Positions 11,274-64,000 of a DNA stretch of 64,000 nucleotides are shown one piece after another. This DNA comes from Acidobacteriota bacterium. GTDB taxonomy: Bacteria > Acidobacteriota > Thermoanaerobaculia > Multivoradales > Multivoraceae. The DNA lies in contig JAPPFP010000009.1 in the NCBI GenBank assembly GCA_028877275.1, positions 354,889-418,888 of the forward strand, written 5' to 3'. The notes below the pieces were generated by a model. The model ran no database searches, was not told where the DNA came from, and saw only the letters and a list, made by a program, of their open reading frames with translations. The position numbers and the translations under genes were made by a program. Position 1 is the stretch's first letter; each line of letters starts with the position of its first letter.

Positions 11274-11275
11274 CG

Positions 11276-24574: not shown

Positions 24575-24644
24575 TGGCTGCTGCTAGCGTCTCGGCTGCA
24601 TGGCGCCGCGGTCGGAACGGGGAAGAGTCTCGCGGGGACGCGGG

Positions 24645-29215: not shown

Positions 29216-29340
29216 GTCACCCCCGAATCAAGCAAGTCGATTGTAGGGGCTTGCACGGCGGAACGCTACGGGTAAGGTCCCGTGGTGCTACCTTCCGCCC
29301 TCGTGCTCTGGTCGGGAACAAGACCGCCCCCCACCCCGTC

Positions 29341-47564: not shown

Positions 47565-48949
47565 GGTGTCTCCAGGTTGTGGAACTGCCGCGGTTTGGAC
47601 GGGGCCGGAACACTGCGCCGCCGTCGTCGGGGAGCGCGACCTGCCGCTTCGCGAAGTTCGTCGAACGACTCCGCGAGCAGGTCGGGCAGCACTTCGGCGT
47701 CGGGACAGGCTCGTTCGTCCACCGTGACGCCGACGTGCAGCGCCTGGTTGTAGGCGAAGAACGCGCAGGAGAGGCCCTGGCCGTAACCGATAGGCCAGGA
47801 GGGCGTGTAGCCGGAAAGCGGCCGGCCGGCCAGGAACTGGGGGATCTGGGGACCGTTCGCGTTGGCGACGGTCAGATGGAACGGCGGCCGCAACGAAGAG
47901 GTCATCGCGGTCGCGGCGGCCGCCAGCGGGCCGGCGGCGCCCTGCACGCCGGCGAAGCGCGACAGCACGTCCGCCACCCGCGCCGTCCGCATCAGGCGCG
48001 CGAGCTGGTGCACCGTACGGAGCCGGTCCGCTGCGCCGACGCTCAGGGGAACTTCGATGGGCAGCAGGCTTCGTCGTTTCCGATCGCGTTCGGGGAGGTC
48101 GGTGGCCAGAGCCACGCGCAGACTTCGGCCTCTGGTCGAGACGCCTCTCAGGTCCAGATAGCGTTCGAGTGCGCCGCCGGCCAGGGCGACGACCACATCC
48201 GAGAGCGCGCCGCCCAGCCGGGCCCGGATCAGCCGGATGTCGCGGTAGGAGAAGGCGCACCGAATCAGGCGGCGCCGTCCCCCCAGCTTTCGGTTGAACG
48301 GCATGGGCACCGGCGGCAGTGCGAGATCGGGCATCGTTTCGTTCAGGGTCAGGAGCGCGGTCCGCGTGTCTTCCGAGGTGAGTTCCTGGAGGCCCGCGGC
48401 CAGATGCTGGCCAATCAGTGTCCAGTTCTGGAGCCACTCCGCCCCGCGAGCGCCGCATCGGGCGCCGTTCGACGCCGGTTCGCCGGCCTTCTTCTCCTCG
48501 ACCGTCGTACCGCTCGCAAACAGCGCGTGGAAGAGGTCGCCGGTGCCCAGTCCGTCGACGGCGACCAGGTGGGATTTGACCAGCAGAGCGTCGCCGCCGT
48601 CGTGGTAGCCGGGCGCCAGATGGAACTCCCACAGCGGCCGGCGGGGATCGAGCGGCTTGCCGAGGGCTTCGTCGAACGCGGAAGCAGGGTCGCCGTTCGC
48701 GACGACGTGCAGGTGCTTGTCGAGTTCGAACGGCGCCGGGCGCCAGCGCGGAGGGCCATAGGGCGGTCCGTCGACACGGAGGCTGAACCGCGGCAGCCTG
48801 CGCAGCCGACCCATCCAGTGCAGGAGTTCCTGCCGGTCGATCTCGCCATCGACGAGCGCCAGACCCGCGACGTGCAGTCCGGGGCCGCGGCGCTCGAGGT
48901 TCCACAGGACCGCCTGGTCGGGCGTCAGGAGGGTGTTGGGAGCGGTCAC
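47561..48949 (-). CDS. Wax ester synthase/diacylglycerol acyltransferase (WS/DGAT) paralogue with a variant active-site motif
   Basis: WS/DGAT-like length and blocks. The H-H-x-x-x-D-G motif appears as SHLVAVDG. ATGA-coupled to the upstream hydrolase gene. Confidence 0.75.
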   Translation of the reverse strand: MTAPNTLLTPDQAVLWNLERRGPGLHVAGLALVDGEIDRQELLHWMGRLRRLPRFSLRVDGPPYGPPRWRPAPFELDKHLHVVANGDPASAFDEALGKPLDPRRPLWEFHLAPGYHDGGDALLVKSHLVAVDGLGTGDLFHALFASGTTVEEKKAGEPASNGARCGARGAEWLQNWTLIGQHLAAGLQELTSEDTRTALLTLNETMPDLALPPVPMPFNRKLGGRRRLIRCAFSYRDIRLIRARLGGALSDVVVALAGGALERYLDLRGVSTRGRSLRVALATDLPERDRKRRSLLPIEVPLSVGAADRLRTVHQLARLMRTARVADVLSRFAGVQGAAGPLAAAATAMTSSLRPPFHLTVANANGPQIPQFLAGRPLSGYTPSWPIGYGQGLSCAFFAYNQALHVGVTVDERACPDAEVLPDLLAESFDELREAAGRAPRRRRRSVPAPSKPRQFHNLETP

Positions 48950-49770
48950 GTGGCCGTCTCCGCGGTGAGCGCGGGACTCGGGTGGCGCTTCAGGAACCGT
49001 GCGAGATGCCAGTACGCGAGGGCGTTGGCGGCCAGGCCGGAATGGGTGCCGAGGACCTCCCGATTCAGCGACGGGTCGTGTAGCCGCGTGTAGCGCCAGG
49101 CGACGACGCCGTCCCGCCGGGTGAAGATGGCGAGCTGCGGCACCTCTTCCGGAAACGGGCTCTGCACCGAGCGGACCAGGTCGCAGCGGCAGTCACCCGA
49201 GAAGCAGGCGGGTTCCCGGGCGCCGTCCCGTTCGACGACGCGGCGGCGTACCGCCTCCGCCAGCCGCATCACCATGGGATGGGAGCGGACGCCCCGGATC
49301 GGTGAGCCCATCGTGGTGACGGACGCGACCAGATCGGGACGCAGGCTCGTTACACCGCGCGAGAGCATGCCGCCCAGGCTGTGGCCGACCAGGTGCGCGC
49401 GCCGGCCGGTCTCGTCCGCGGCCTTCTGGAGCGTTCCGATCAGCCGGTTGCCCAGCCGGTCGAGACAGTCGGCGTTCTGCCCGATGGCCGAACGGTAGGG
49501 GCGGTAGCCGATGCGGCCAAGCCAGCGGCGCATCGGCGCCAGGTAGCCGTCGGTTCCGGTGAAGCCGGGAACGACGATCACCGCGGCGCCGTCGCCGCGC
49601 GGCACGCCCATGCCGTGGTAGATGGGCGTGAACGGCAGGAAGGCAAACTCGGCGGCCGCGAACGGCTCGCGCCAAAGCGGCAGCGCCGCCGGCACCGAAT
49701 CCCGCAGGAGACGCGGGTTCGCGCTCCAGATCGGGCTGGCCTGACGCCCCCGCCGGGCCGACGCCGTCAC
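48946..49770 (-). CDS. Alpha/beta-hydrolase lipase/esterase (GHSLGG)
   Basis: VIVVPGFTG..., nucleophile elbow GHSLGG. GTG start overlaps the WS/DGAT stop (TAGTG). The ORF-track 5' extension is rejected. Confidence 0.7.
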   Translation of the reverse strand: MTASARRGRQASPIWSANPRLLRDSVPAALPLWREPFAAAEFAFLPFTPIYHGMGVPRGDGAAVIVVPGFTGTDGYLAPMRRWLGRIGYRPYRSAIGQNADCLDRLGNRLIGTLQKAADETGRRAHLVGHSLGGMLSRGVTSLRPDLVASVTTMGSPIRGVRSHPMVMRLAEAVRRRVVERDGAREPACFSGDCRCDLVRSVQSPFPEEVPQLAIFTRRDGVVAWRYTRLHDPSLNREVLGTHSGLAANALAYWHLARFLKRHPSPALTAETAT

Positions 49771-51284
49771 TAGGCGACTCCTCGCAGGGACGCGTCGGAA
49801 TGGGAGTCGGTCGCGGCGGCCTCTTCGGCCTGCGGCAGATCGACCTGGGGTGACGCTGCCGCGAAGCAGCGCGCGCCGCTCGGCTCCTCGCTCTCCACCC
49901 CGGCCGCCTCCCGGAGTTCGGCGTACGACTCCTCCAGGCACTGGGCGAGGAACCACGCGTCGGGGATGAGCTTGGCGTCCACCGTCACTCCCAGGGTGAT
50001 GCGCTGGTTGTAGCTCAGGATGGCGACGAACAGGCCGATGTTGTTCGAAACGATGCCGAGTGGTAGCCAGTCGACCAGCTTGTGGGGTCCGAAGTACAGC
50101 GGAATCATCGGCCCGGGCACGTTGGTCGAGACGGTGTTGAACAGGGTCTGGGAGAAGGGCATCGTCGCGGCGACGGCAGCCATGAGCGGCGGGACCCGGT
50201 CGCTGAACTGGGTCATCTGGTAAAAGGCCTTCGCCTGCCCGGCCTCCTTCAGCTTGTTCATCGCGTCCCGTTCCCTGCCGAGGCGTTCGACCGGGTCGTC
50301 GACCCCGACGAAGAGCGGAGCGATCATGTTCGAGACGAGATTCCCGAGCTGACCCCGTTCGTCCTGCTGGCGCATGCTGACCGGGCACATGGCGCGCAGC
50401 TCGAGTCCCTTCGGGTCCTGGCCGCGCTCACGCAGGTAGCGACCGATGCCGCCGGCGAGCACGGTGAGCACGACGTCGTTGACGGTGCCGCTCAGGGCGG
50501 ACTTGACGGCGCGCAGTTCGGGGAAGGAGAACTGGGCCCATGCGAACCCCCGCTCCTTGCTGACCGGTCGATTGAAGACGGTGCGCGGCGCAGGAGCGGC
50601 GGAGACCGGCAGGGTCGCGGCGCTGGCCGCCACCATCTCGCGTACGCGGTCCGCCATCTGGCGAGGGCGCGCGGCGTCGAAGGCGGCGTTCGTCCAGGAC
50701 TCGTTCAGTTGTCCGAGGCGATGCTGCATCGCTTCCTGGAGGAGGCTCAGAGAGTCCGGCAGCGGCTTCGGCGCCCAGGGCTCGGCGGGTGCGTCCGGCA
50801 GTTCCTCGGTGGGTGAGAAGTCGCTCAGCACCATCGACAGGTCGACGCCGGAGACGCCGTCGACCATCGCGTGGTGGATCTTCCAGACGACCGCCGTGTG
50901 TCCCGGGATGCCGCGGAGCAGAATCCCCTTCCAGAGCGGCCGGTTGCGGTCGAGCATGCCGCCGTAGGCCTCGGCGGCGGCGCGGGCCAGTACCTGGTGG
51001 TCGCTGTCCTCAGGGATCCAGACCTCCTCGACGTGGTTCTCCAGGTTGAAGGACGGGTCATCGACCCACACCGGGTGGGAGACGAGGAAGGGCGGGAACA
51101 GCACGCGCTGGCGGTAGCGGGGCAGCAGGTGCATGCGGGCGGCAAGCTGTTCGACCATGTACTCGCGCGAGAACTCGCCTTCGTAGACCATGCAGCCGCC
51201 GATGTGCATCGTCTCGTGGGGGCGTTCGACATAGAGGAAGGCGGCGTCGAGCGGGGTCAGGAATCGGTTCAGTTCCGTGGCCAT
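49770..51284 (-). CDS. Wax ester synthase/diacylglycerol acyltransferase (WS/DGAT)
   Basis: Canonical HHAMVDGVSG active-site motif and WS/DGAT N-terminal block LTPLDAAFLYVE. Confidence 0.85.
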   Translation of the reverse strand: MATELNRFLTPLDAAFLYVERPHETMHIGGCMVYEGEFSREYMVEQLAARMHLLPRYRQRVLFPPFLVSHPVWVDDPSFNLENHVEEVWIPEDSDHQVLARAAAEAYGGMLDRNRPLWKGILLRGIPGHTAVVWKIHHAMVDGVSGVDLSMVLSDFSPTEELPDAPAEPWAPKPLPDSLSLLQEAMQHRLGQLNESWTNAAFDAARPRQMADRVREMVAASAATLPVSAAPAPRTVFNRPVSKERGFAWAQFSFPELRAVKSALSGTVNDVVLTVLAGGIGRYLRERGQDPKGLELRAMCPVSMRQQDERGQLGNLVSNMIAPLFVGVDDPVERLGRERDAMNKLKEAGQAKAFYQMTQFSDRVPPLMAAVAATMPFSQTLFNTVSTNVPGPMIPLYFGPHKLVDWLPLGIVSNNIGLFVAILSYNQRITLGVTVDAKLIPDAWFLAQCLEESYAELREAAGVESEEPSGARCFAAASPQVDLPQAEEAAATDSHSDASLRGVA

Positions 51285-51397: not shown

Positions 51398-53404
51398 CTA
51401 GGCCGGTCGCCGCCACCGGAACACGGCTACGTCGATGACCTCCCGCGCCGGCTCGACCAGGATCCGTATCGGTGACTGCGGCACGTCGAAACGCTGCGTT
51501 AGACAGCGGCGCCGTTCCCTGCCTCTCTGGGTGTGGCGGCAGGGCAGCGGATTGCCATCGACTTCAATGGAGATCTCCACCGCGTCGCGTGAGGGACTGC
51601 GGACTGCGATCTCCAGCGACACGAGGCCAGGGCCTGCTGCGGGTGCGTCGGTCCCTGCTGGCAGCGCCGCCGGATCGACTTCGTAGAGTCCCTCGCCCGT
51701 ACGGGAGAAGGCGGTGGGCGCGGGTGGTCCCAGCGCCTCGAAGGGTCGGCGCACGAGGACGACGGGATCTCCGCGCAGCCGGAACAGCTTCGGATCGAAA
51801 CGCTGAACGGTCACACCCGGCTGAGCCGCGGCCAACTCCCGGTAGGCGGAGTCCTGGTCGGGTTCAAGCCGCGAAGCCGGGAAGAGCAGGATGTCGGCCG
51901 CCTCCCGCTCCGACCGGGACTCGGCGGCGATGCTGTCCGCGCGGATGAGTGTGGTTACGTAGTTCCCGTTCCAGATCCGGGGGTCGAAGTCCTGGATCCC
52001 GAGCGGCAGTTCGGTCATGAACGTCCGTCCCCTGAGCGGCTTCGGCCTCCCGGCCGTTCGGGCGGCCTCCGCCGAAGTCAGCGGGACGTTCTCTTCGTAC
52101 ACCGCGGTGTGGACGAAGCGGGCCTTGTCGAGTCCGGCCAGTCCGGCGCCGGCAGCCAGGACGGCCAGGGAGACGATCGTCCACCGGCGTTGCGGCAGGC
52201 CGCGGGCTGCGCGCACCAGCTTGCCGAGGAACCAGGCGCCGGCCAGGGCGACCACCGGAGCGACGATCAGCCAGTTGGGCGGCTTCGGATACCGGGTGAC
52301 GACCCACAGGGAGGCGACGTAGCCGCCGAAGAAGACGCCCAGGACGAGCGCGTCGGCAACCGTGGCGCCGCCCCGTTCGCCCGGCAGCCGCCCCCGGACA
52401 TCGCGCCGGGCCCGCAGCGCGAGAACGAGCATCCAGCCCAGGCCGAGGAGCCCGCAGGCGCCCAGCACGGGGCTGAAGTAGACGCTGCCTGCGAGGCTCG
52501 TCACCGCGTTCAGCGGCTGGTCGAAGAGCCCGGCGCCTACTTCGGCGAGTCGCTCCCGGTAGTGGCTCACGGTCGACCCGAGATGGCGCCGGTACATCTC
52601 GGGTGCCAGCACCAGCCAGGGATTGAGCAGGAGCAGCACGCCGGCGCCGCCGGCGGCCGCGGCCGCGGTACGGCGGACCAGCAGACCGATGTCGCGGACG
52701 CCGCCCAGGGCGATCGCAACGAGCAGCGGTAGCGCCAGCGCCGCGCCGTTCCACTTGGCGGCGGCGGTTGCGCCGACCATGGCGCCGGCGATCGCGTACC
52801 CTCGGAGACTCTCGCTTCGCCGCGCGGCGAGGATCGCGTAGAGGGTCAGGACGGCAGTCAGGACCAGCATGATGTCGGGCTTGAACACGCCCGACTGGCG
52901 CATGTGCCAGGGGGCGACGGCGAGCAGGAAGGCCGCGCCCAGACCGACCCAGGGGCCGAACAGCCGCCGGCCGATCACGAACACGACGAACAGCGAGGCG
53001 GTGCCCAGCAGCGTCTGGATGATCCGGGAGACGCGCACGGCGATCCGGGTGAGATAGGGCCGTCCGTCCGGTGCGATCCCGAACGTCGTCGGCAGGGAGG
53101 AGAGCCAGGGCAGGGAGCGGGCCGTTTCGTATGCCTTGAGGGCCGCCGCGTGGGGCAGGTAGGAGAGCGTCGGGTAGTGCGTGCGCACCGGTCGCCACTG
53201 GTCGTGGGCCAGGACCGCGGCGACGTTGCCGGCGTTGTAGCGCTCGTCCCAGAGCCGGTTCATCGTCGGGTCCGGCCAACTGAAGAGCACGCGGACCGCA
53301 AGCGCCCACAGGAGCAGCAACCCGAGCAGCCACTTCTGCAGGCTCGTCGTCCGGAGCGGCGTCCCTTCCGGGTCCAGATGACTCCCCGGCTCTACCGCGC
53401 TCAT
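51398..53404 (-). CDS. GT39/GT83-like (PMT/ArnT-type) polyprenyl-phosphate-sugar-dependent glycosyltransferase, integral membrane
   Basis: Multi-TM N-terminal region with the ArnT/PMT-like loop pattern and a large C-terminal periplasmic domain. Confidence 0.7.
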   Translation of the reverse strand: MSAVEPGSHLDPEGTPLRTTSLQKWLLGLLLLWALAVRVLFSWPDPTMNRLWDERYNAGNVAAVLAHDQWRPVRTHYPTLSYLPHAAALKAYETARSLPWLSSLPTTFGIAPDGRPYLTRIAVRVSRIIQTLLGTASLFVVFVIGRRLFGPWVGLGAAFLLAVAPWHMRQSGVFKPDIMLVLTAVLTLYAILAARRSESLRGYAIAGAMVGATAAAKWNGAALALPLLVAIALGGVRDIGLLVRRTAAAAAGGAGVLLLLNPWLVLAPEMYRRHLGSTVSHYRERLAEVGAGLFDQPLNAVTSLAGSVYFSPVLGACGLLGLGWMLVLALRARRDVRGRLPGERGGATVADALVLGVFFGGYVASLWVVTRYPKPPNWLIVAPVVALAGAWFLGKLVRAARGLPQRRWTIVSLAVLAAGAGLAGLDKARFVHTAVYEENVPLTSAEAARTAGRPKPLRGRTFMTELPLGIQDFDPRIWNGNYVTTLIRADSIAAESRSEREAADILLFPASRLEPDQDSAYRELAAAQPGVTVQRFDPKLFRLRGDPVVLVRRPFEALGPPAPTAFSRTGEGLYEVDPAALPAGTDAPAAGPGLVSLEIAVRSPSRDAVEISIEVDGNPLPCRHTQRGRERRRCLTQRFDVPQSPIRILVEPAREVIDVAVFRWRRPA

Positions 53405-53414
53405 CCCTAAGCCC

Positions 53415-54314
53415 TCAGCTCAGGATGGGATAGCCGCTGACGGCGGTCAGCTTGCGGAACAGGCCCTGCAGCCGCTCGAGCACGGGCCGGTCGGTGCCGC
53501 CGATCGGACGGCCGTCCACCTCCGCGACGGCCACCAGTTCGCCCATCGTGCCGGTACAGAAGGCCTCGTCGGCACGGTAGAGCTCGGCCTGCGTGAAGTC
53601 GGCGACTTCATGAGGGATGCCGTGGTTTCGGCAGAGTTCGAGCACGGTCGAGCGGGTGACGCCCTCGGGACAGGCGTGGCAATGGCTGGTCACCACGACT
53701 CCGTCGCGCACCAGGAAGACGTGGGTCGCGTTCGTTTCCGCCACGAAGCCCTGGCGGTCGAGCATCAGGGCGTCGTCGGCGCCGGCGGCGTTCGCCTCGA
53801 TCTTGGCCAGGATCGACTGGATCAGGTTGTTGTGGTGGATCTTCGGATCCATGCAGTCGGGCGGAAAGCGGCGGATCGAGGAGGTCATCAGCCGGATGGG
53901 TTGTGAGCCGTAGACCGGCGCCTTGTGCTCGGCGAGGACGATCAGGGTGGGTCCGGCGGTGTTGAGGCGGGGGTCCATGCCGGACGTGATCTTGACGCCC
54001 CGGGTCAGGGTCAGGCGGATGTGGACATCGTCCCGCATCCCGTTCGCCTCCAGGGTGCGGCGGATCTCGTCGATGATCTCCTCGTGCTGCGGGATCTCCG
54101 CGAAGGCCAGAGCCAGCGCCGAGTGGCGGAGGCGGTCCAGGTGCTGCTCGAGCCTGAAGATGCGGCCGTCGTACAGGCGCAGCCCCTCCCAGACGGCGTC
54201 GCCGCCCTGGACGGCCGAATCGAAGGGGCTGATGCCCGCCTGGTCGCGGTGGATCAGGTCGCCGTTGATGTTGATCAGCAGGTCGCGGTTTCTGGGGTTG
54301 GCCTTCTGCAGCAT
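53415..54314 (-). CDS. Class IV (branched-chain / D-amino-acid) aminotransferase
   Basis: Start at MLQKANPRNRDLLININGDL. Fold-type-IV blocks HVFLVRDGVVVT, EAFCTGTMGELV. The ORF-track 5' extension is rejected. Confidence 0.8.
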   Translation of the reverse strand: MLQKANPRNRDLLININGDLIHRDQAGISPFDSAVQGGDAVWEGLRLYDGRIFRLEQHLDRLRHSALALAFAEIPQHEEIIDEIRRTLEANGMRDDVHIRLTLTRGVKITSGMDPRLNTAGPTLIVLAEHKAPVYGSQPIRLMTSSIRRFPPDCMDPKIHHNNLIQSILAKIEANAAGADDALMLDRQGFVAETNATHVFLVRDGVVVTSHCHACPEGVTRSTVLELCRNHGIPHEVADFTQAELYRADEAFCTGTMGELVAVAEVDGRPIGGTDRPVLERLQGLFRKLTAVSGYPILS

Positions 54315-54367
54315 GACGGGTTCGCTGGCGGCTGGGGCGGGCGGTCTCTCGGTTCGGAAGACGAGGC

Positions 54368-55111
54368 TCAGAAGAGGAGACGATGCGCGGCGAGGTGATC
54401 GTAGTGCTCCTGGCACTCCTCGAGCACGTCGGCAAGGAACTCCGGAACCGGCTCGTTCTTGGGCCGGTAGGGCGCGAAGCCCGTGCTCTTCTCGACCGCA
54501 CCGTACCAGTGCGGCGCCCAGATGCCGTCCGTCTCGCGGCGGCCGGACGGCCAGTGCAGCATCGCTTCGTCGAACTCGGCTCCGACCGCGCGGCAGAGAC
54601 TCTCGAGGCCCGCTCGGGGGTCCCGCAGCACGTCGGCCGAGTCGATGACCGCCGGAGCCTGGCCGAGCCGCTCGCACTCCAGGTCGAAGAGCTCCCGCTG
54701 CTGGGGCAGGCCGGTATCGGGCAGCCCGGGTTGCGGGAGGATGTGGATCAGGGACGTCAGCATCTCCGCCGGGTCGCGGATCAGGAAGACGTTCGTGAGC
54801 TTCGCCACCCAGGACCGGTCCGTTTCCGGCAGCAGGTGGTGCGCCATGTGCTTCTGGTAGAAGACCGTCCGGCCAAAGGAGGTGTCCTCCGTCAACCAGT
54901 GGACGACCTGCCGCAGGTCACTGTCATGGTGGGCGAGGATCTCGTCCCGGCCAGGGTGGTCGAGCCCGTGCTGGAGCAGGTAGTTGGCGTAGAGCGGCTC
55001 ATCGCACACGAAGGTGTCGTCGCGGTTCCCCCAGGCCCGGAGCATCGCGGTCGAGATGTTCCGGGGGCCGGACCACATCGCGATCCTCAGCACCTGTCGT
55101 TCGCCTGGCAC
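54368..55111 (-). CDS. PAPS-type sulfotransferase family protein
   Basis: N-terminal IAMWSGPRNISTA resembles the 5'-phosphosulfate-binding loop of cytosolic-type sulfotransferases. Confidence 0.6.
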   Translation of the reverse strand: MPGERQVLRIAMWSGPRNISTAMLRAWGNRDDTFVCDEPLYANYLLQHGLDHPGRDEILAHHDSDLRQVVHWLTEDTSFGRTVFYQKHMAHHLLPETDRSWVAKLTNVFLIRDPAEMLTSLIHILPQPGLPDTGLPQQRELFDLECERLGQAPAVIDSADVLRDPRAGLESLCRAVGAEFDEAMLHWPSGRRETDGIWAPHWYGAVEKSTGFAPYRPKNEPVPEFLADVLEECQEHYDHLAAHRLLF

Positions 55112-55118
55112 TTCGTTG

Positions 55119-55964
55119 TTACGAAGGCGCCGCCGCGGTCGCTTCGCCGGCCGTTCCGTACCCGGCTCGCATCCGGGCGAACAGGGCGGTCATGTCGTCG
55201 TGGGTGGCCTCGGTCAGGAAGCGCTGGGTCCACATGATCCTCGGCGCTGCCGACACGTTCGGAGCGGGTGAGTGCAGCAGACGCATGTCGATCAGGTAGA
55301 CGTCCCCGCGCCGCCCCGTCAGCTCGACGACGCGAAGGTCGGCGTCGCCGCAGCGCACGGTCTCGCGCAGGAACCGGCCGCGGTGCTTCACCTGCTTCGA
55401 CATGAGTTCCCGGAAGTAGCGCTCCCGGCGAAGGCGTTCCGTGATCTGCCGGGAACCGAGCCACGGAATGTCGTACAGGAGCCGGTGGCCGCCCTGGACG
55501 ACGACCGTGCCGCCGCTGCCCGGCTCGACCGTGTCGAGCATCGCGAACGCCTGCACGCCTGGAGTGGTCCGGCGATTGGGCAGTTTCGGCAGGTCGACGT
55601 GCCAGGTGGTCTCGGGCAGGGACCAGGCGCCCGGTTGCGGAAACGAGAAGAGGAGTTGCGGCCACTTCATCATCGGCCTGGCCGGGCCGCCAGCCGCCGC
55701 CTCGACCGCGGCCTCGAGGCCCGGTGTGACCAGATCGGCGAGCACGCAGGCGTGTCGGATTCCCTCGAGCAGCCGCTTGTTGTGGCGCTGGAGAGGCTCG
55801 TCGGTCAGTTGGTCCAGTAGCCAGACGCCGTTCCGGCGCACCCCTGCCTGCTCCGACTTCTCGTAGACGAGTCTCAGCGCGCGGCTGGTCAGCTCGTCCG
55901 GGAGCAGCCCGGGCAACTTGACCAGTCCGGCGGCCTCGAATCGTTCGCGGGCGGTCCGGTTCAT
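55119..55964 (-). CDS. Phytanoyl-CoA dioxygenase (PhyH) family Fe(II)/2-oxoglutarate oxygenase
   Basis: Start chosen at MNRTARERFEAAGLVKLPGLL (typical PhyH N-terminus). WHVD (H-x-D) and a distal His region. Confidence 0.7.
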   Translation of the reverse strand: MNRTARERFEAAGLVKLPGLLPDELTSRALRLVYEKSEQAGVRRNGVWLLDQLTDEPLQRHNKRLLEGIRHACVLADLVTPGLEAAVEAAAGGPARPMMKWPQLLFSFPQPGAWSLPETTWHVDLPKLPNRRTTPGVQAFAMLDTVEPGSGGTVVVQGGHRLLYDIPWLGSRQITERLRRERYFRELMSKQVKHRGRFLRETVRCGDADLRVVELTGRRGDVYLIDMRLLHSPAPNVSAAPRIMWTQRFLTEATHDDMTALFARMRAGYGTAGEATAAAPS

Positions 55965-56015: not shown

Positions 56016-57182
56016 ATGAGTCGGCGGGCCGAGTTCGAGGCTGAGCACCCGGAAGTTCACGTCCTGTCGGCCGACCAGGCGGGGCGAGTGGACCTGGTGA
56101 TGGGCGCGGTCGGGTGGTTAGGTGACGAGGAGCAGGTCACGACCTGTGCCTCCCTGGGCGGCGAGTCGAGCACCGTGATGCGGGTCGAACTCCAGGAACT
56201 GCGCGGAGGGTGGCGTACCGCGGTTCTGAAGCAGTCGCTTCCCTGGCTGCGGCGAGACGAGTCGATCGCCATGCCGACCGGCCGCTGGAGCGGCGAGCGC
56301 GCCTTCTATGCGGAGGTAGCCCGTGTGCCCGAGGTCGCGGCCCGCATGCCGCGCCTGATGGCGGCCAACGAAGCGAGGTTCCTGTTGCTGCTCGAGGACT
56401 TTCGCGGCGCTCCGAATCTCGTGTCGCTCTACCGGGGCGGTTCGCTGGCCGATCAGGCCGCGAGTGCTCTGGGCGCGTTCCTTGGGGCGCTTCGCCGCGG
56501 GACGCGCGGCCAGGAGGAGCCGGACCGTGCGAACACCGGCATGAAGGCTCTGAACCATCGGCTCCTGTTCGAGGCGCCGTTCGCTTCTTCGATGGTGAGA
56601 GGCGACGGCTTCGGGCCCGACGGTCCGGCGCCGGAAAGCGCCGCCCTCGACGCAACCGAACCCGGGCTCGGCGAGGCGGCGGCGGCCCTGCGGTCGGATC
56701 GTGTCTTCGGGGAGGCCGTCTCGGAGCTGGGGAGCCGCTTTCTCGGCGCCGGCGCCTGCCTGGTTCACGGCGCGTTCCATCCCGCCAACTGGCTGGTCGC
56801 GCAGGACGGCGGCGTTCGCGTGGTAGACCCGCAGTACGGCGGCTGGGGCGATTCCGAGTTCGACATCGGCACGGGGCTCGCGCACCTGCTGCTTGCCCGG
56901 CAGCCGGCGGAGGTTGTCGCGGCGTTCCTGGCGGCGGCCGTCGGCTTGGAGGAGGCCGGTGGAGAAGAGCCGGGGGACGCCGAAGGCGGGGAACCCGGCG
57001 TCGACCGACCACTCGTGGCCCGGTACGCGGGAGTCGAGATCGTCCGCCGGCTGATTGGCGGCGGCCAGCTGCCGCTCGAGGCGGCTGAACTTTCCGAGCC
57101 GGAGGCGGGTTTTCGCTGCGGTCTGCTGGAGACGGCCCGGAAGGCCGTTCTGTCGGGCCGCCTGGAGGTACTGGAAACATGA
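56016..57182 (+). CDS. Phosphotransferase-family protein (APH / choline-kinase / MTR-kinase-like fold)
   Basis: HGAFHPANWLV (Brenner-type H-x-D/N loop) followed by a D-x-E/D region. Confidence 0.55.
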   Translation: MSRRAEFEAEHPEVHVLSADQAGRVDLVMGAVGWLGDEEQVTTCASLGGESSTVMRVELQELRGGWRTAVLKQSLPWLRRDESIAMPTGRWSGERAFYAEVARVPEVAARMPRLMAANEARFLLLLEDFRGAPNLVSLYRGGSLADQAASALGAFLGALRRGTRGQEEPDRANTGMKALNHRLLFEAPFASSMVRGDGFGPDGPAPESAALDATEPGLGEAAAALRSDRVFGEAVSELGSRFLGAGACLVHGAFHPANWLVAQDGGVRVVDPQYGGWGDSEFDIGTGLAHLLLARQPAEVVAAFLAAAVGLEEAGGEEPGDAEGGEPGVDRPLVARYAGVEIVRRLIGGGQLPLEAAELSEPEAGFRCGLLETARKAVLSGRLEVLET

Positions 57183-58573
57183 AGCGCTCTCCCGTGCGCC
57201 GGCTGGTCGTTGCCCTCGGTCTGGTCACGCTCGGCGCGGCGCCCGCAATCGCCCAGGGCACGGACTTCGAGCAGGGACGGGTGCTCCACGGACCCGGCCA
57301 TGTGCTGCCGCACCGGGACCGGGTGGAGCCCTTCAACCGCATGCTCGAGGAGCGGCTGAACGAACTCCTGCCGCGGTTGATGCGCGAAACCGGGATCGAC
57401 ATGTGGCTCGTCATCAACCGCGAGTACAACGAGGATCCGGTGTTCTTCAGCCTGGTGCCGCGGCCGGTGTTCGCCGCCCGCCGGACGACGATGCTCGTGT
57501 TCTTCGACCGAGGGGCGGACAACGGTGGCATCGAACTCCTGACGGTGAACCGCTACCCGTACGGCGCGCTCTACGAGTCGGCCTGGGAGGGCGGCGACCT
57601 GGAGGAGCAGTGGCGGGGACTGGGCGAGGTGATCGCCGCCCGCGACCCGAAACGGATCGGCGTCAACGTCTCGCGTCATTGGCCCGTCGCGGACGGTCTC
57701 TCGGCGGCGCTCCACGAGCGGCTGCTGGAGGTGCTCACGCCCGAACTCAAGGAGCGGTTGACCAGCGCCGAGGAGCTGGTCGTACGCTGGATCGAGACCC
57801 GCAGTCCGCTGCAGATGGAGGCCTATCCCCAGATCGTCTCCCTGGCACGCGGCGTGATCGCGGAGGCCTTCTCGGAACGCGTGATCACCGCGGGCGCCAC
57901 GACCACGGACGATGTCGCCTGGTACATCGCCCAGCGGTTCGAGGACCTGGGGCTCGACATCTGGTTCCTGCCCTCCGTCAACGCCCAGCGCCGGGCGTCC
58001 GAAGAGGACGACGCCTGCGGTCGCGGTGAGCCCTTCTGCGGTGGCAGCGGCGAGTTCGTCATCCAGCGCGGCGACGTCCTGCACACGGACGTCGGCATCT
58101 GTTACCTCGGCCTGTGCACCGACACCCAGGAGATGGGCTACGTACTACGCCTCGGCGAGAGCGAGGCGCCGGTCGAGCTCCAGGGCGCACTGGCCGCCGG
58201 CAACCGCTGGCAGGACATCCTCACCGGCGAGTTCAGGACCGGCCGAACCGGCAACGAGATCCTGGCGGCGACGATCGCGATCGCCACCGACGAGGGTCTG
58301 CGTTCCAGTACCTACACCCACCCGCTCGGCGTGTTCGGCCACGCTCCCGGACCGACGATCGGCATGTGGGACAACCAGGGAGCGACGCCGATTCGCGGCG
58401 ACTGGCCGCTTCACCCGGACACCGCCTACGCGATCGAGGGCAACGTCAAGGTCGAACTCGAGATGTGGGGCGGCCAGGACGTCCAGATCAAGCTGGAGCA
58501 GAGCGCCGTCTACGACGGCGAGCAGGTGCTCTACCTGGCGGGCCGCCAGACCGAGTGGCACCTGGTCCGCTGA
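57179..58573 (+). CDS. Secreted M24-like (creatinase/Xaa-Pro peptidase fold) metallopeptidase
   Basis: Signal peptide, then a creatinase-N-like domain and a pita-bread C-domain with His/Glu-rich blocks. ATGA-coupled to the upstream gene. Confidence 0.55.
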   Translation: MKRSPVRRLVVALGLVTLGAAPAIAQGTDFEQGRVLHGPGHVLPHRDRVEPFNRMLEERLNELLPRLMRETGIDMWLVINREYNEDPVFFSLVPRPVFAARRTTMLVFFDRGADNGGIELLTVNRYPYGALYESAWEGGDLEEQWRGLGEVIAARDPKRIGVNVSRHWPVADGLSAALHERLLEVLTPELKERLTSAEELVVRWIETRSPLQMEAYPQIVSLARGVIAEAFSERVITAGATTTDDVAWYIAQRFEDLGLDIWFLPSVNAQRRASEEDDACGRGEPFCGGSGEFVIQRGDVLHTDVGICYLGLCTDTQEMGYVLRLGESEAPVELQGALAAGNRWQDILTGEFRTGRTGNEILAATIAIATDEGLRSSTYTHPLGVFGHAPGPTIGMWDNQGATPIRGDWPLHPDTAYAIEGNVKVELEMWGGQDVQIKLEQSAVYDGEQVLYLAGRQTEWHLVR

Positions 58574-58953: not shown

Positions 58954-59982
58954 ATGAAGATGGATCGCAGACGTTTTCTGCAAACCGGCGCCGTGCTCGG
59001 CGCGGCTGCCGCTGCCGGCTGCATGGACGGCGACGCCGGGTCCGGTGACGAGGCGGCGCCGGCCGCCGAGGCCGCGGTCGAGCCCCTCTACCGCATATCC
59101 CTGGCCGAGTGGTCCTACTTCCGTGAACTCTTCGGTGAGGGTGGCCGGGAGGCGCTGAGGGAGGGCACGTTCGGGGAAGTGCTCGGCAGCGACCCTCGTT
59201 CGCTCTACGGGGGCGAGCTGGATCACCTGGACTTCCCGGCGCGCGCCCGCGGCCTGGGGATCGAGGCGGTCGAGTACGTGAACACGTTCTTCTTCGACCG
59301 CGCGCGGGATGAGGAGTACCTGGCGGATCTCAAGTCGCGCTGCGACGGGGAGGGCGTGACCAGCCTGCTGATCATGTGCGACGCGGAGGGCGATATCGGG
59401 GCTCCTGATGCGGCTGCCCGCACGCAAACGGTCGAGAACCATCACAAGTGGGTCGAGGCGGCGGCCTTTCTCGGCTGTCATTCGGTGCGCGTGAACGCGG
59501 CTAGCGCGGGGTCCTTCGAGGAGCAGCAGAAGCTGGCGGCCGACGGTCTGCGACAGTTGTGCGAGTACGCCGACGGCTACGGCATCGACGTCCTGGTCGA
59601 GAACCACGGCGGCATCTCGAGCAACGGCGAGTGGCTGGCCGGCACCCTCGCCATGGTCGATCACCCCCGCATCGGATCCCTGCCCGACTTCGGCAACTTC
59701 CGGGTTTCCTACGAACCCGAAGAGTGGTACGACAGGTACAAGGGCGTCACCGAGCTGATGCCCTTCGCCCGCGCCGTCAGCGCCAAGAGCTACGACTTCG
59801 ACGAGGCCGGCGACGAGACGACGATCGACTACGAGCAGATGATGCGGATCGTCCTCGACGCGGGCTACCGCGGCTGGGTCGGCATCGAGTTCGAGGGGCC
59901 GATGGCCGCCGACGACGGCATCGTGAGGACGAAGGAACTGCTCGAACGGCTGCGGGACGATCTCGCGCCCGAGTACGTCTGA
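58954..59982 (+). CDS. Tat-exported xylose-isomerase-like TIM-barrel protein (sugar phosphate isomerase/epimerase family)
   Basis: Twin-arginine signal MDRRRFLQTGAVLGAAAAAG. TIM-barrel metal-ligand blocks (VENHGG...). Confidence 0.8.
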   Translation: MKMDRRRFLQTGAVLGAAAAAGCMDGDAGSGDEAAPAAEAAVEPLYRISLAEWSYFRELFGEGGREALREGTFGEVLGSDPRSLYGGELDHLDFPARARGLGIEAVEYVNTFFFDRARDEEYLADLKSRCDGEGVTSLLIMCDAEGDIGAPDAAARTQTVENHHKWVEAAAFLGCHSVRVNAASAGSFEEQQKLAADGLRQLCEYADGYGIDVLVENHGGISSNGEWLAGTLAMVDHPRIGSLPDFGNFRVSYEPEEWYDRYKGVTELMPFARAVSAKSYDFDEAGDETTIDYEQMMRIVLDAGYRGWVGIEFEGPMAADDGIVRTKELLERLRDDLAPEYV

Positions 59983-59986
59983 ACTC

Positions 59987-61447
59987 CTACGCCGGAAGGC
60001 GTACGCTGGCGTCCGCGCGTGAGCCCGTTTCCGGCGCACCCTCTGCCTGGAAGACGCGCCCGGGATTGAGGATGCCCCTCGGGTCGAGAGTCCGCTTGAG
60101 CGTCCTCATGAGGGCGATCTCCGCCGGCGTTCGGCTGCGCCCCAGGTGAGCCCGCTTCTCGAAGCCGATGCCGTGTTCGGCCGACACCGAACCGCCGATC
60201 GGCTCGAGGCCTCCGTAGACGACTTCCTCGACCGCGGTGCGCGCTTCAGGAGAACCGTCGCCGACGGCGACGACGACGTGGAGGTTGCCGTCGCCCAGAT
60301 GGCCGAAGACGACGCACTGGCTCTCCGGCCAGCGCTTGGCCAGGGCCGCCTTGATCCCGGCGACGTAGCTCTCCATGTCGGCGATCCGGAGGCTGACGTC
60401 GAACGTGAAGATCGGCGCCAGGTGGTTGAGCTGTTCGACGTCGTCGCGCAGCGCCCAGATCTCGTCGCGCTCCGCTTTGGACCGGCCGAGCACCGCGTCT
60501 CCGATCAAGCCGGCTTCCATGCAGCCGCCGAGCGTCTCCTCGAACTGCGCCGCGTCCTCCTCGGGCCGCGCACCGAGCGACTCGACCAGAACGTAGTAGG
60601 GATCGCCGTGCGGAATCGGGGGCGCCGTCCTCGCCTGCGGGCCGGTGACCAGTTCGTAGAACTCGCGCCACATGACCTCGAAGGCGCTCATCGAGCCGCC
60701 GATCTCCTCTTCCAGCCGGCGCAACAGTTCGACCACTTCGGCGAAGCCCGGCACCGCCAGCAGGGCGCAGTCGTGGCTGCGGGGCCGCCGCTCCAGACGC
60801 AGGACAACGCGGGTGACGATTCCAAGGGTGCCTTCGGAACCGACGAATAGGTGTTTCAGGTCATAGCCCGCGTTGTTCTTGACCATCTTGTTCAGGCTGG
60901 AGAGCACCGTGCCGTCAGCGAGCACGGCCTCCAGGCCGAGCACCGAATCGCGAGTCATGCCATAACGAATCGTTCGGTTGCCTCCGGCGTTGGTCGCCAC
61001 GTTGCCGCCGATCGTGCAGGATCCGCGGGCGCCCAGGTCGAGCGGAAACAGCAGCCCTTCGGCCTCGGCCGCCTCCTGAATGCTCTGCAGCGCGGCGCCC
61101 GCCTGAACCGTCATCGTCCGGCCCACCGGATCGATCTCCTCGATCGTGGTCATCCGTTCCAGGGTGATGGCGACCTCAAGATCACCGGCGACGCCGCCGC
61201 CGACGAGACCGGTCAGTCCGCCCTGCGGCACCACCGGCTGGTTGGCGGCGTGACAGGCCGCCAAGGCTGCCGAGAGTTGCTCCGTGGTGCGCGGGCGAAG
61301 CACTGCCCGGGCGACGCAGGGAACGGTGCCCGAGCCGTCGCCGGCCCTCGCCGTCACCGCCTCGCCAACGAGGACGCCGTCCTCCCCGAGAGCGTGGCGG
61401 AGTTCGGCGAGTAGGGCGTCGCTGGAGCGACGTGCGTGATCGGTCAT
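59987..61447 (-). CDS. FAD-binding oxidase (GlcD / D-lactate-dehydrogenase-like)
   Basis: FAD-binding PCMH domain (VVPQGGLTGLVGG) plus a C-terminal FAD-oxidase domain. Confidence 0.85.
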   Translation of the reverse strand: MTDHARRSSDALLAELRHALGEDGVLVGEAVTARAGDGSGTVPCVARAVLRPRTTEQLSAALAACHAANQPVVPQGGLTGLVGGGVAGDLEVAITLERMTTIEEIDPVGRTMTVQAGAALQSIQEAAEAEGLLFPLDLGARGSCTIGGNVATNAGGNRTIRYGMTRDSVLGLEAVLADGTVLSSLNKMVKNNAGYDLKHLFVGSEGTLGIVTRVVLRLERRPRSHDCALLAVPGFAEVVELLRRLEEEIGGSMSAFEVMWREFYELVTGPQARTAPPIPHGDPYYVLVESLGARPEEDAAQFEETLGGCMEAGLIGDAVLGRSKAERDEIWALRDDVEQLNHLAPIFTFDVSLRIADMESYVAGIKAALAKRWPESQCVVFGHLGDGNLHVVVAVGDGSPEARTAVEEVVYGGLEPIGGSVSAEHGIGFEKRAHLGRSRTPAEIALMRTLKRTLDPRGILNPGRVFQAEGAPETGSRADASVRLPA

Positions 61448-62381: not shown

Positions 62382-62956
62382 CGGAGCGGGATGGTAACGG
62401 TACGTCGTAGCCAGTCGACGAGCTGGTCGAGGTCGGTGAACACGCGCGCGCCGGCCGCGGCCGCGGCGGTCGACTGGTCGCTGTCGCCCGGCGGCCGGTC
62501 GAAGACAGCCAGGGGACGCCCGTAGCGGAGCGACAGCTCGATCTCGCTCCAGGTGCCGGCGCTGCCCGGCAGGGCAACCACGGCGTCGGCGGAGAGGACG
62601 TTGATGTGGTTGCGCGAGAAGGGACCGGTGCCGGACGCGCCGGACAGCGGCAGGTGAGTGCGGATCACGACCTCCACCCACGGGTTGGGGTAGCCGTCGG
62701 GCGAGCCGTCGCCGTCCTGCTGGCTCGGAACGACTCCCAGGCACAGGCCCTCTCGTCCCTCGGTCTCGGCGAAGGCGCGGCTGGTGGCCGTCATCGTGCC
62801 GCGGCCGGCGCCGGTCAGCAGGTGCCAGCCGTTCCCGGCGATCGCCCGGCCCAGGGGCGCGGCCAGGTCCTCGTGGCTCTCGGCGCCCGAACCCATCACG
62901 CCGACGATGGGGCGCCGCTCGACTACTGGGACTTGCCCCGGGCGCTGATCGGCCAC
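62378..62956 (-). CDS. TIGR00725/LOG-like Rossmann-fold nucleotide-binding protein
   Basis: IVGVMGSG glycine loop, GWHLLTGAGRGTM, VVALPGSAGTWSEIELS. Proposed GTG at 62956 has GGAGG 5 nt upstream but overlaps the upstream gene by 34 nt. Alternative starts are 62899 and 62896. Confidence 0.6.
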   Translation of the reverse strand: MADQRPGQVPVVERRPIVGVMGSGAESHEDLAAPLGRAIAGNGWHLLTGAGRGTMTATSRAFAETEGREGLCLGVVPSQQDGDGSPDGYPNPWVEVVIRTHLPLSGASGTGPFSRNHINVLSADAVVALPGSAGTWSEIELSLRYGRPLAVFDRPPGDSDQSTAAAAAGARVFTDLDQLVDWLRRTVTIPLR

Positions 62957-63969
62957 AGTTCCTCCACCCGGCCGTCCCGTACCGGGTAGTACACGTCGTA
63001 GAGGTTGACCGTCGGGTCGCAGTGGGGCGTGATGCAGCGGAGCCGGTCGCCGAGTTGCACGGGTCTGGACGCATCGGCGATCCGGAGGATGCCGTGCTCG
63101 TCGCCGCCCCAGCCGTAGACCACGCCGCCGACGTCGGCGAGCTGCGGGCGGTCCGCGTCCGAGGCGAACGCCTTGTAGCCGCCGTCCGTCGTGATCAGTT
63201 CCGGCACGGGCTGGCTGATCGCCGTCACCTGCACGAAGAGCGAGGTCTCGAAGTCGTCGAAGACGTCCCCGCTGCGACCGCCGATCCGCAGGTACTGCTC
63301 GTCCATGAACAGGTAGGAACCGACCTGGAGGTCGGTCATGCCATCGACCTCCGAGTCGATGTCCCAGGTGCCGGTGCCGCCGCCGCTCAACACGCTGACG
63401 GAGATGCCGTCGGCCTCGATCAGCCGCCTCGTCTCGACCGCGGCCTTGAGTGCGTCGAGGGACCGGGCCTGTCGCTCGGCGTGGCCGTGGACGTGCATCA
63501 GATGGCCGGCGTAGGCCTGAAGACCGCGCAGGTCGAGATGGGGCAGGCCGTCGATCGTCCGCGCCAGCTCGAGCGCCGGCTCGCCGGTGGCGACACCGGT
63601 ACGCCGGGTACCGACATCGAGGTCGACCAGGACGCGCTGGGTGACGCCTTCGGAGGCCGCGGCCTGGTGGAGCCGTTCGGCCGCGGCCTGGTGGTCGACC
63701 ACCAGGGTGACCTCGGGGCTCTGTTTCGAGAGGGCGACGACCCGCCCGATCTTGTCGTCGGTCACGACCGGCGACGTGATCAGGACCTCGTCGATGCCCG
63801 CCTCGACCATGACCTCCGCCTCGCTGACCTTGGCGCAGCAGACGCCGACCGCGCCGAGTTCGATCTGGCGTTTCGCCAGGAGCGGGCACTTGTGGGTCTT
63901 CGTGTGGGGGCGCAGCGAGATGCCCCGTTCCTCGGCGTGGGCGGCCATCTTCGCCAGGTTCAACTCCAT
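62923..63969 (-). CDS. DSD1-family PLP enzyme (alanine-racemase-N-domain; D-serine deaminase / D-threonine aldolase-like)
   Basis: LRPHTKTHKC PLP-lysine motif and a TIM-barrel plus beta C-domain layout. Confidence 0.75.
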   Translation of the reverse strand: MELNLAKMAAHAEERGISLRPHTKTHKCPLLAKRQIELGAVGVCCAKVSEAEVMVEAGIDEVLITSPVVTDDKIGRVVALSKQSPEVTLVVDHQAAAERLHQAAASEGVTQRVLVDLDVGTRRTGVATGEPALELARTIDGLPHLDLRGLQAYAGHLMHVHGHAERQARSLDALKAAVETRRLIEADGISVSVLSGGGTGTWDIDSEVDGMTDLQVGSYLFMDEQYLRIGGRSGDVFDDFETSLFVQVTAISQPVPELITTDGGYKAFASDADRPQLADVGGVVYGWGGDEHGILRIADASRPVQLGDRLRCITPHCDPTVNLYDVYYPVRDGRVEELWPISARGKSQ

Positions 63970-64000
63970 CCTGGCGACGTCGACGAGCAGCGCCGGCGTC

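Follow-up and report, generated by a model that had tools for sequence, protein, structure and literature searches.

A conserved two-gene unit of a sulfotransferase-fold protein and a lysine-less fold-type-IV aminotransferase homologue in a mosaic acidobacterial locus

Four genes in tight series on the minus strand of an acidobacterial contig raise the question of whether they form a single tailoring pathway or whether only part of the series belongs together. In the window, that is, the whole 64,000-nucleotide stretch that was analysed, they encode a PhyH-family Fe(II)/2-oxoglutarate oxygenase (55119-55964; 281 aa), a predicted PAPS-type sulfotransferase, here called ST5 (54368-55111; 247 aa), a BCAT-derived fold-type-IV protein, here called AT4H or AT4 (53415-54314; 299 aa), and an ArnT/PMT-like membrane glycosyltransferase of predicted GT-C fold (51398-53404; 668 aa); ST5 and AT4H are the core genes of the module discussed below. 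The ORFs and junction sequences bear out the gaps of 7, 53 and 10 nt reported in an earlier, sequence-only reading of this DNA, and profile searches with each ORF return the labels PhyH, Sulfotransfer_5, Aminotran_4 and PMT_2 that it had led us to expect. The span given for the series in that reading, 53415-55964, does contain three of the genes but takes in only those three, since the GT-C gene falls outside it. As also described there, a WS/DGAT acyltransferase gene begins 113 nt beyond the GT-C gene according to the ORF coordinates (49770-51284, minus strand; Pfam WS_DGAT_cat, 1e-47, and WS_DGAT_C; 386 bits with NCBIfam TIGR02946, which exceeds the cut-off of that model); it is a downstream neighbour outside the module and is followed by an alpha/beta hydrolase gene (about 48946-49900). 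Upstream of PhyH and divergent from the series, a kinase-fold protein is likewise present, an APH-fold kinase on the plus strand (56016-57182; Pfam APH, 7e-7), whose gene is overlapped by that of an M24 peptidase (57179-58573, plus strand; Pfam Peptidase_M24, 3e-8).

PhyH is probably co-transcribed with ST5. Its start at MNRTAR is backed by the gene calls of relatives (278-281 aa), and, because ST5 relatives are called at 236-247 aa, the start of ST5 may be the GTG at 55093. No terminator-like site was found at the gene junctions on the operon strand. Over the region as a whole, terminator-like matches number 4, against 3.3 expected from shuffled sequence, which is no excess. A search for riboswitches upstream of ST5 gave none in the window and none in 20 further loci; two c-di-GMP-I aptamers seen in this check lie on the strand opposite to ST5 and serve the divergent gene. 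PAPS-supply genes were not seen among the scanned window ORFs.

We then compared 80 species-level loci from about eight phyla, 78 of which could be judged for linkage between ST5 and AT4. ST5 occurs in 78 loci of the set and AT4 in 71, and the two are linked in some arrangement in 66 of the 78 judgeable loci (∼85%), covering at least seven bacterial phyla, and are adjacent in 59. AT4 lies immediately downstream of ST5 in 55 of the 80, with a median gap of 42 nt. The pair is present in more than 590 species genomes among the matches listed, with eukaryotic fusions in addition, and is strongly conserved, at 54-77% identity between phyla; Maioricimonas sp. JC845, Tautonia sp. JC769 and Salinibacter are among the carriers in culture. 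When all ORFs within 7 kb of ST5 were clustered across the 78 loci, no third conserved partner emerged; the next most common gene family is found in 13 loci and reflects lineage synteny. Twelve loci have ST5 without AT4 within 3-10 kb, and their neighbours are unrelated to one another. Six loci carry genes inserted between ST5 and AT4; by-eye judgement of the sequences gives prolyl oligopeptidase-like, ankyrin-like, P-loop kinase-like and molybdoenzyme-like inserts, which are mutually unrelated.

The remaining genes of the series are distributed quite differently. PhyH stands beside ST5 in one of the 80 species loci (L004), in four further loci from close relatives (L085-L088) and in the window; it is missing in other close relatives (L005-L009 and L084, the last with 89% ST5 identity) and in all other phyla, and a metagenome scan for PhyH relatives yielded none that could be confirmed. 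A GT-C gene downstream of AT4 is confined to a single acidobacterial clade (L004-L008 and L084-L088) and to five of the 80 species loci, and the WS/DGAT and alpha/beta hydrolase genes accompany the pair in most of the GT-C-bearing loci, a synteny limited to the same clade. The APH-fold kinase and M24 peptidase genes, too, adjoin ST5 at the level of the clade alone (L004-L009 and L084-L088), and the acidobacterial syntenic block extends further, including plainly unrelated genes for an FAD oxidase, a TIM-barrel protein and the M24 peptidase. The locus is a mosaic: the two-gene module of ST5 and AT4H is its sole evolutionarily coupled unit, and the genes for PhyH, the GT-C transferase and WS/DGAT are neighbours specific to the lineage. 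Co-conservation of all four members of the series across relatives was not observed, and the four-gene tailoring pathway proposed by the sequence-only reading is not supported: the synteny check named there goes against it, only ST5 and AT4 being co-conserved. For the window, this is a warning that a neat four-gene series is not to be taken as a sulfated-lipid or sulfated-glycan pathway.

The PhyH protein scores 45 bits against a profile cut-off of 22 (2e-11) and carries the metal triad, with HxD in WHVD and the distal His in LLHSP; it has no sequence match in the PDB. The GT-C protein scores 50 bits with PMT_2 against a cut-off of 26 (6e-13) and has a DE motif in LWDERYN (aa 51-57) after the first hydrophobic segment, which together support a GT-C fold. 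The GT39 label given to it earlier is looser than stated there: PMT_2 passes, but PMT proper (PF02366), at 22.3 bits, just misses its cut-off of 22.7; STT3 is weak and under its cut-off, and the CAZy family is not settled by the profile scores.

ST5 and AT4 also occur as one chain. In-frame fusions in the order ST5 then AT4 are found in bacteria (P0241, P0244 and P0251) and in eukaryotes, namely, in an MMETSP transcript from a marine protist and in the choanoflagellates Diaphanoeca and Hartaetosiga, to which a plant-like sequence (P0348) may be added. In three other candidates (P0246, P0250 and P0255) the sequence between the domains runs out of frame; because they look like frameshift read-throughs, they were left out as evidence for fusion. 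One choanoflagellate fusion (P0367) retains the canonical lysine of the aminotransferases, and therefore the histidine described below is not obligatory for the partnership of ST5 with AT4. The pTM of an AF2 model built for one natural fusion is 0.58, so the domain interface in it is unreliable and cannot be used. The extra domains of the longer fusions, GuK-PDZ repeats and a DSPc phosphatase, give no metabolic hint. The linkage, the in-frame fusions and the lack of a third partner speak for the joint action of ST5 and AT4 that is proposed below.

With Sulfotransfer_5 (PF19798; cut-off 23.2 bits), ST5 scores 176 bits (E = 9e-52). The PAPS-loop-like segment WSGPRNIST noticed earlier is real: the 5'-phosphosulfate loop WSGPRNISTA follows the strand formed by residues 8-14, opens the helix 18-28 and is invariant in 13 relatives, as is the putative 3'-phosphate motif, R112 and, eight residues on, S120 in LIRDPAEMLTS, after the strand 106-111. 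The structural model folds like a sulfotransferase and not like a nucleotide kinase, its best structural match being the activating sulfotransferase of an olefin synthase; by this model the PAPS-sulfotransferase fold of ST5 is genuine, and its PAPS motifs are intact. The closest folds, the activating sulfotransferase domains of CurM and the olefin synthase (OLS; PDB: 4gox, 4gbm), share only ∼15% identity with it. Those domains sit within megasynthases, act on ACP-bound beta-hydroxyacyl substrates and hand over to a thioesterase (TE), whereas ST5 is either a separate protein of 25 kDa or part of a fusion with a fold-type-IV protein. As no family besides AT4 occurs in more than 13 of the 78 loci, there is no co-conserved TE, ACP or PKS partner within 7 kb of ST5; the likeness to the ST-TE systems lies in the sulfotransferase fold and possibly in the logic, not in membership.

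The AT4 protein meets the Aminotran_4 domain profile with 157 bits against a cut-off of 28.5 (1e-45) but falls below the thresholds of all 22 NCBIfam models for BCAT, DAAT and ADCL, the best being PRK08320 (235 against 363), with TIGR01122 (ilvE_I) at 190 against 246. In an ungapped HMMER alignment to the BCATs 5mqz and 5cm0 and in a MAFFT alignment, the column of the catalytic lysine is occupied by His160 (codon 53835-53837); in E. coli IlvE and Bacillus DAAT, too, it is the catalytic Lys that falls opposite this His. His160 is invariant in 63 orthologues, while position -2 varies between K, R, N, Q and T. The same orthologues keep Arg46, Arg61, His98, Arg100, Lys108, Glu193, Thr220, Arg221 and Thr256, and thereby a cofactor site in which Glu193 would contact the pyridine N1 and Arg61, Thr220, Arg221 and Thr256 would form the phosphate cup (Arg, GxTR, TGT), together with the two arginines for the substrate carboxylate. 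Altogether, 75 residues are invariant across these His-type orthologues at identities down to 54%, the whole cofactor and carboxylate site included, and invariance over so wide a divergence favours a working rather than a decayed active site. With archaeal-type BCATs (PDB: 5mqz, 5cm0/5e25, 1wrv), AT4 thus shares the fold-type-IV architecture, the phosphate cup, the Glu to N1 and the carboxylate-binding Arg residues; it departs from them in that His replaces the Schiff-base Lys, Leu stands at the place of the O3'-contacting Tyr, Tyr95 (E. coli numbering) is likewise replaced by His, and the loop has one more residue and includes an invariant Lys. By its sequence, AT4 is not a canonical transaminase. 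Standard transamination is unlikely because the catalytic lysine is missing, and the transamination step of the earlier proposal is therefore doubtful.

The nearest solved relative of AT4 is an 'aminotransferase-like protein' from Variovorax paradoxus (PDB: 7z79; 221 bits, ∼42% identity), for which no function was found in the literature. It resembles AT4 in its BCAT-derived fold, in the absence of the catalytic lysine and in the TRGVK-T loop lysine, but it has Asn at the lysine column and has lost the N1-binding Glu that the window protein keeps. Such Asn-type proteins adjoin or are fused to ST5 in a few cases (L039, L059, L066 and P0384), and in the three Asn-type loci found the order of the ST5 and AT4 genes is reversed. 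Because the Glu for the pyridine nitrogen is lost, these partners probably do not bind PLP at all.

What might the pair do? We propose, with a probability of roughly 0.4, that ST5 and AT4H are a two-gene sulfate/B6 module acting on one small carboxylate-bearing metabolite, an amino acid, 2-oxo acid or hydroxy acid, with AT4H processing the sulfated compound. ST5 would transfer sulfate from PAPS to a hydroxyl of this metabolite, giving a sulfate ester; the residues likely to carry out the catalysis are Arg17, Glu38 and Lys87. AT4H would hold PLP or PMP non-covalently and use His160 as an acid/base, and its most likely chemistry would be elimination or replacement of the sulfate leaving group rather than ordinary transamination. 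Such a scheme would join the logic of the 'activating' sulfotransferases to that of the PMP enzymes with His for Lys. ColD and E1 (AscC) are PMP-dependent sugar 3-dehydratases with His in place of the Schiff-base Lys, lysine-less B6 enzymes in which the His serves as acid/base and a beta-substituent is expelled from a ketimine. They differ from AT4H in being of fold type I rather than IV, in acting on nucleotide sugars and in expelling hydroxide rather than sulfate; the resemblance is mechanistic only, and they serve as a model for catalysis by a His-type AT4. In the window's lineage, the probably co-transcribed PhyH oxygenase could conceivably supply the hydroxyl group. Some partners of ST5, those of the Asn type, fit a non-catalytic or non-PLP role better, which speaks against the module chemistry, as do the fusion P0367 with its canonical lysine, the twelve loci in which no AT4 lies within 3-10 kb of ST5 and the failure to see PAPS-supply genes among the scanned window ORFs. 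The more specific claim that the pair is an uncharacterised two-component enzyme, sometimes in one chain, that brings sulfate-activated His-for-Lys B6 chemistry to bacteria, choanoflagellates, marine protists and probably plants is unlikely. Should it prove true, the His-for-Lys PMP enzymes would gain their first counterpart of fold type IV, one that produces or consumes a small metabolite which is widespread and yet has escaped notice.

Several other readings have to be set against the module. AT4 could instead serve as a pseudoenzyme subunit, with no catalysis of its own, which binds the acceptor or an effector and presents it to ST5 or regulates ST5, sulfation being the only chemistry; in our judgement this is rather improbable, though well short of negligible. 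The catalytic Lys is lost in both the His and the Asn type and the N1-binding Glu in the latter, tight adjacency and fusion would suit an obligate complex, and the depositors of the nearest homologue chose the name 'aminotransferase-like' and also deposited an N174K mutant (PDB: 9j32), N174 being the residue that aligns with the AT4 lysine column. Against this, the His type of the window keeps all cofactor- and carboxylate-contacting residues and the His itself invariant, a stronger constraint than is usual for a mere scaffold, although the same pattern of invariance could also arise in a regulatory domain that binds a ligand. It is hardly credible, on the other hand, that AT4 is simply the ordinary branched-chain aminotransferase (IlvE) of the organism and that its adjacency to ST5 is functionally meaningless. 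Its best NCBIfam and PDB similarities are indeed to BCATs, and public sources annotate it as a 'branched-chain aminotransferase', a label contradicted by the missing lysine and the failed curated thresholds. The Schiff-base Lys and the O3'-contacting Tyr are both absent, with the fusion P0241 as query no canonical Lys-Tyr BCATs come up until identity has dropped to about 41-43%, and fusion across kingdoms with 85% linkage is unlike chance adjacency.

Two readings remain. For ST5 to be a small-molecule kinase or some other P-loop enzyme seems to us very improbable; public records do name it 'HAD family hydrolase', a label without Pfam support, whereas the Sulfotransfer_5 match, the sulfotransferase-fold model and the PAPS motifs uphold its earlier assignment as a sulfotransferase rather than a member of a different P-loop family. 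Improbable, too, is the view that PhyH, ST5, AT4 and the GT-C transferase make one tailoring pathway, perhaps connected with the WS/DGAT or sulfoquinovose genes, whose product is a sulfated amino-lipid or a glycoconjugate of the envelope. The common strand, the short gaps, the lack of a terminator-like site at the junctions and the intact PhyH HxD...H triad are all in keeping with it, and the full arrangement recurs in related marine or sponge Acidobacteriota (L004 and L085-L088). It is opposed by the absence of PhyH even at 89% ST5 identity, by the confinement of the GT-C and WS/DGAT genes to one clade in which unrelated flanking genes are conserved as well, as in ordinary synteny, and by an AT4 that lacks the catalytic lysine. 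The suggested link to the sulfoquinovose locus finds no support: the SqdB-like gene lies about 24 kb away, and in numerous genomes and varied contexts the pair has no such neighbour, no family of this kind being common within 7 kb of ST5 elsewhere.

Full-text literature yielded no publication on, or function for, the ST5-AT4 pair, the hits being confined to Pfam listings and plant omics gene lists; the plant name 'branched-chain-amino-acid aminotransferase-like' likewise appears only in such gene lists, with no functional study found. Once established, the reaction of the pair would correct thousands of annotations, give a role to two long-orphaned plant genes and show whether a fold-type-IV B6 enzyme works without its lysine and with sulfate as leaving group. 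The plant genes are At5g27410 and At3g05190, the 'branched-chain-amino-acid aminotransferase-like proteins 2 and 3', which are probably comparable in architecture to the ST5-AT4 fusions. A plant-like fusion of 559 aa (P0348), from a Logan contig, has the IHHNN motif as in AT4 and carries in one chain the two domains that are encoded by separate genes in the window.

In the window, the genes for a PhyH-family Fe(II)/2-oxoglutarate oxygenase (55119–55964), the PAPS-type sulfotransferase ST5 (Sulfotransfer_5; 54368–55111), the fold-type-IV protein AT4 (Aminotran_4; 53415–54314), an ArnT/PMT-like GT-C membrane glycosyltransferase (51398–53404), and a WS/DGAT acyltransferase (49770–51284), with an alpha/beta hydrolase next, follow one another on the minus strand with gaps of 7, 53, 10, and 113 nt. 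The window ORFs confirm the four-gene series and WS/DGAT spacing described in the sequence-only reading, as well as the kinase-fold gene divergent from PhyH, an APH-fold kinase accompanied by an M24 peptidase. The interval assigned to the series encloses three of its genes but leaves the GT-C gene outside, and the label GT39 is loosely supported, with PMT_2 above its cut-off but PMT proper slightly below. Terminator-like matches in the region are not in excess of the shuffled expectation, and the junctions carry none on the operon strand. The G+C content of the window is ∼69%. An Acidobacteriota MAG encodes a protein 98% identical to the window's ST5, and among the matches listed in a one-genome-per-species scan, MAGs of Holophagales and Thermoanaerobaculia are closest at the species level.

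The species-representative scan (one genome each) yielded at least 590 confirmed ST5 relatives, and the best 80 of these loci, from Acidobacteriota, Planctomycetota, Verrucomicrobiota, Gemmatimonadota, Chloroflexota, Gammaproteobacteria, Rhodothermia/Salinibacter, and Actinomycetota, were queried by tblastn with eight window proteins. AT4 lies immediately downstream of ST5 on the same strand in 55 of the 80 loci (median gap 42 nt) and downstream with one gene between in 6; it is immediately upstream in 4 and 2.3 kb upstream in 1, absent within 3–10 kb in 12, and not judgeable in 2 because the contig ends. When all ORFs within 7 kb of ST5 were clustered, the ST5 family occurred at 78 loci, AT4 at 71, and the third-ranked family, which reflects verrucomicrobial synteny, at just 13. 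Loci without AT4 show no consistent replacement neighbor of ST5. At one such locus, from Candidatus Multivorans (L008, 10001–12755), GT-C directly follows ST5; its sister genomes, L006 and L007, have AT4.

The other members of the series behave differently from AT4. In the tblastn searches of the 80 loci, PhyH was found in a single one (L004), GT-C only in L004–L008, and the WS/DGAT, hydrolase, kinase, and M24 peptidase in most of L004–L009. PhyH is present in closer relatives with 83% and 92% ST5 identity, lineages that also keep the whole block from the FAD oxidase and TIM-barrel protein to a second WS/DGAT, and it is missing from a lineage with 89% identity and from the Thermoanaerobaculia and Multivorans genomes. 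In the window, the FAD-linked oxidase (59990–61447, minus strand) and the TAT-signal TIM-barrel gene (58954–59979) belong to a block syntenic with the closer relatives L085, L087, and L088. The PhyH/GT-C block is thus ordinary clade-level synteny with patchy PhyH, not the product of selection for a four-gene pathway. The four genes are not co-conserved in relatives, and although the fold labels originally assigned are correct, the proposed tailoring pathway for a sulfated lipid or glycoconjugate is not borne out.

Natural fusions provide strong independent evidence that ST5 and AT4 work together. When a concatenated ST5 + AT4 query was used and proteins with both Pfam domains were kept, P0241, P0244, and P0251 emerged as clean in-frame fusions with short linkers; three others (P0246, P0250, and P0255), with an out-of-frame, low-complexity stretch between the domains, were set aside as probable frameshift read-through of adjacent genes. 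An exhaustive search with P0241 returned more fusions at 34–47% identity, among them an MMETSP transcript, a plant-like sequence of 559 aa, and proteins from two choanoflagellates, Diaphanoeca grandis and Hartaetosiga balthica. In every fusion with both domains mapped, ST5 precedes AT4, which is the usual gene order. Additional domains are found ahead of ST5-AT4 in the 1449-aa H. balthica protein P0367 (four guanylate-kinase/PDZ repeats) and in P0493 (635 aa; a dual-specificity phosphatase domain). The predicted structure of a natural fusion showed no reliable domain interface.

ST5 is a competent-looking sulfotransferase: it is highly conserved (∼60% identity between phyla), with an invariant WSGPRNISTA loop, Glu38 (in CDEPLYA), Lys87, and R112-x7-S120 motif. 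AT4 matches Aminotran_4 but falls below every curated BCAT, DAAT, and ADCL threshold. Aligned by HMMER with the archaeal BCATs 5mqz and 5cm0, with no gap from the RR anchor to the ILAKIEA helix, AT4 has His160 (DPKIHHNN) where these enzymes have their catalytic lysine (NIKSLNY); MAFFT, with more canonical enzymes included, gives the same placement. Among 65 AT4 sequences adjoining ST5, this column is His in 62 and Asn in 3, and position −2, a lysine in the window protein, is variable (K, R, N, Q, or T). Canonical Lys-Tyr BCATs return only at ∼41–43% identity to the query fusion P0241, and the AT4 domain of P0367 keeps the canonical lysine (DIKH). In the His type, 75 residues are invariant in 63 sequences with identity down to 54%, including the phosphate-cup residues Arg61, Thr220, Arg221, and Thr256; Glu193, the pyridine N1 partner; Arg46 and Arg100, which bind carboxylate in BCATs; and His98, His160, and the family-specific loop residue Lys108. 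The ligand site of the His type is under strong constraint despite the lost lysine.

The partnership of ST5 and AT4 looks obligate, and AT4 retains a conserved ligand site without the lysine. Taken jointly, the structural conclusions (a two-gene module, an AT4 that is not a canonical transaminase, and no four-gene pathway) have a probability of about 0.85. What the module catalyzes can be proposed only tentatively. ST5 would place sulfate onto a hydroxyl of a small carboxylate-bearing metabolite, and the His160-bearing AT4 would then act on the sulfate ester through non-covalent PLP or PMP, with His160 as acid/base; most likely, the sulfate would be eliminated or substituted. The proposal is made by analogy, because sulfate is an installed leaving group in CurM/OLS, retinol dehydratase, and LGS1, and because the PMP-dependent dehydratases ColD and E1 have a histidine in place of the Schiff-base lysine; we regard this catalytic sequence as possible rather than probable.

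The main rival, that AT4 is a non-catalytic subunit with an acceptor-binding or regulatory role, is about equally likely, and it draws on the Asn-type proteins, which lack the lysine and have also lost the pyridine-nitrogen-binding Glu. These adjoin ST5 in reversed order, with AT4 upstream (L039, 2950–4556; L059, 12–1636; L066, 2497–4124), and one is fused to ST5 in P0384. They resemble 7z79, the nearest solved structure to AT4, titled "aminotransferase-like protein from Variovorax paradoxus"; the residue mutated in its N174K variant, 9j32, aligns with the His160 column. The locus is a widespread module of a sulfotransferase and a lysine-less fold-type-IV protein amid lineage-specific neighbors. 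No published function for the module was found in the literature searched.

The suggested tie to a sulfoquinovose locus found no support. That locus presumably comprises a 450-aa SqdB-like NAD epimerase/dehydratase ORF with a divergent Glyco_trans_1_3 gene (27878–30402) and, near the epimerase, a GT4 gene with a DUF6165 neighbor (23357–24583). These genes lie ∼24 kb from ST5, to which no link was found, and none of the gene families that recur within 7 kb of ST5 at the other loci is an SqdB-like epimerase, a glycosyltransferase of this kind, or a sulfatase. The sulfatase-domain ORF of the window (9006–11366, minus strand), likewise distant from the module, has its domain from about residue 362 of a 787-aa frame, reflecting either a long N-terminal region or an overcalled start codon. 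No Rfam element that would serve ST5 was found upstream of it, either in the window or in 20 loci. In two gammaproteobacterial MAGs, c-di-GMP-I aptamers lie just upstream of ST5 on the opposite strand (L041, 6000–6081, and L038, 4045–4125, both minus) and presumably control the divergent gene rather than ST5. Two further minus-strand window ORFs were noted: an 884-aa ORF (41048–43699) combining pyridine-nucleotide-disulfide oxidoreductase and AIRS/AIRS_C domains resembles a SelD-like/flavoprotein fusion, and an Ala_racemase_N + D-ser_dehydrat protein (62926–63999) resembles D-threonine aldolase or D-serine dehydratase.
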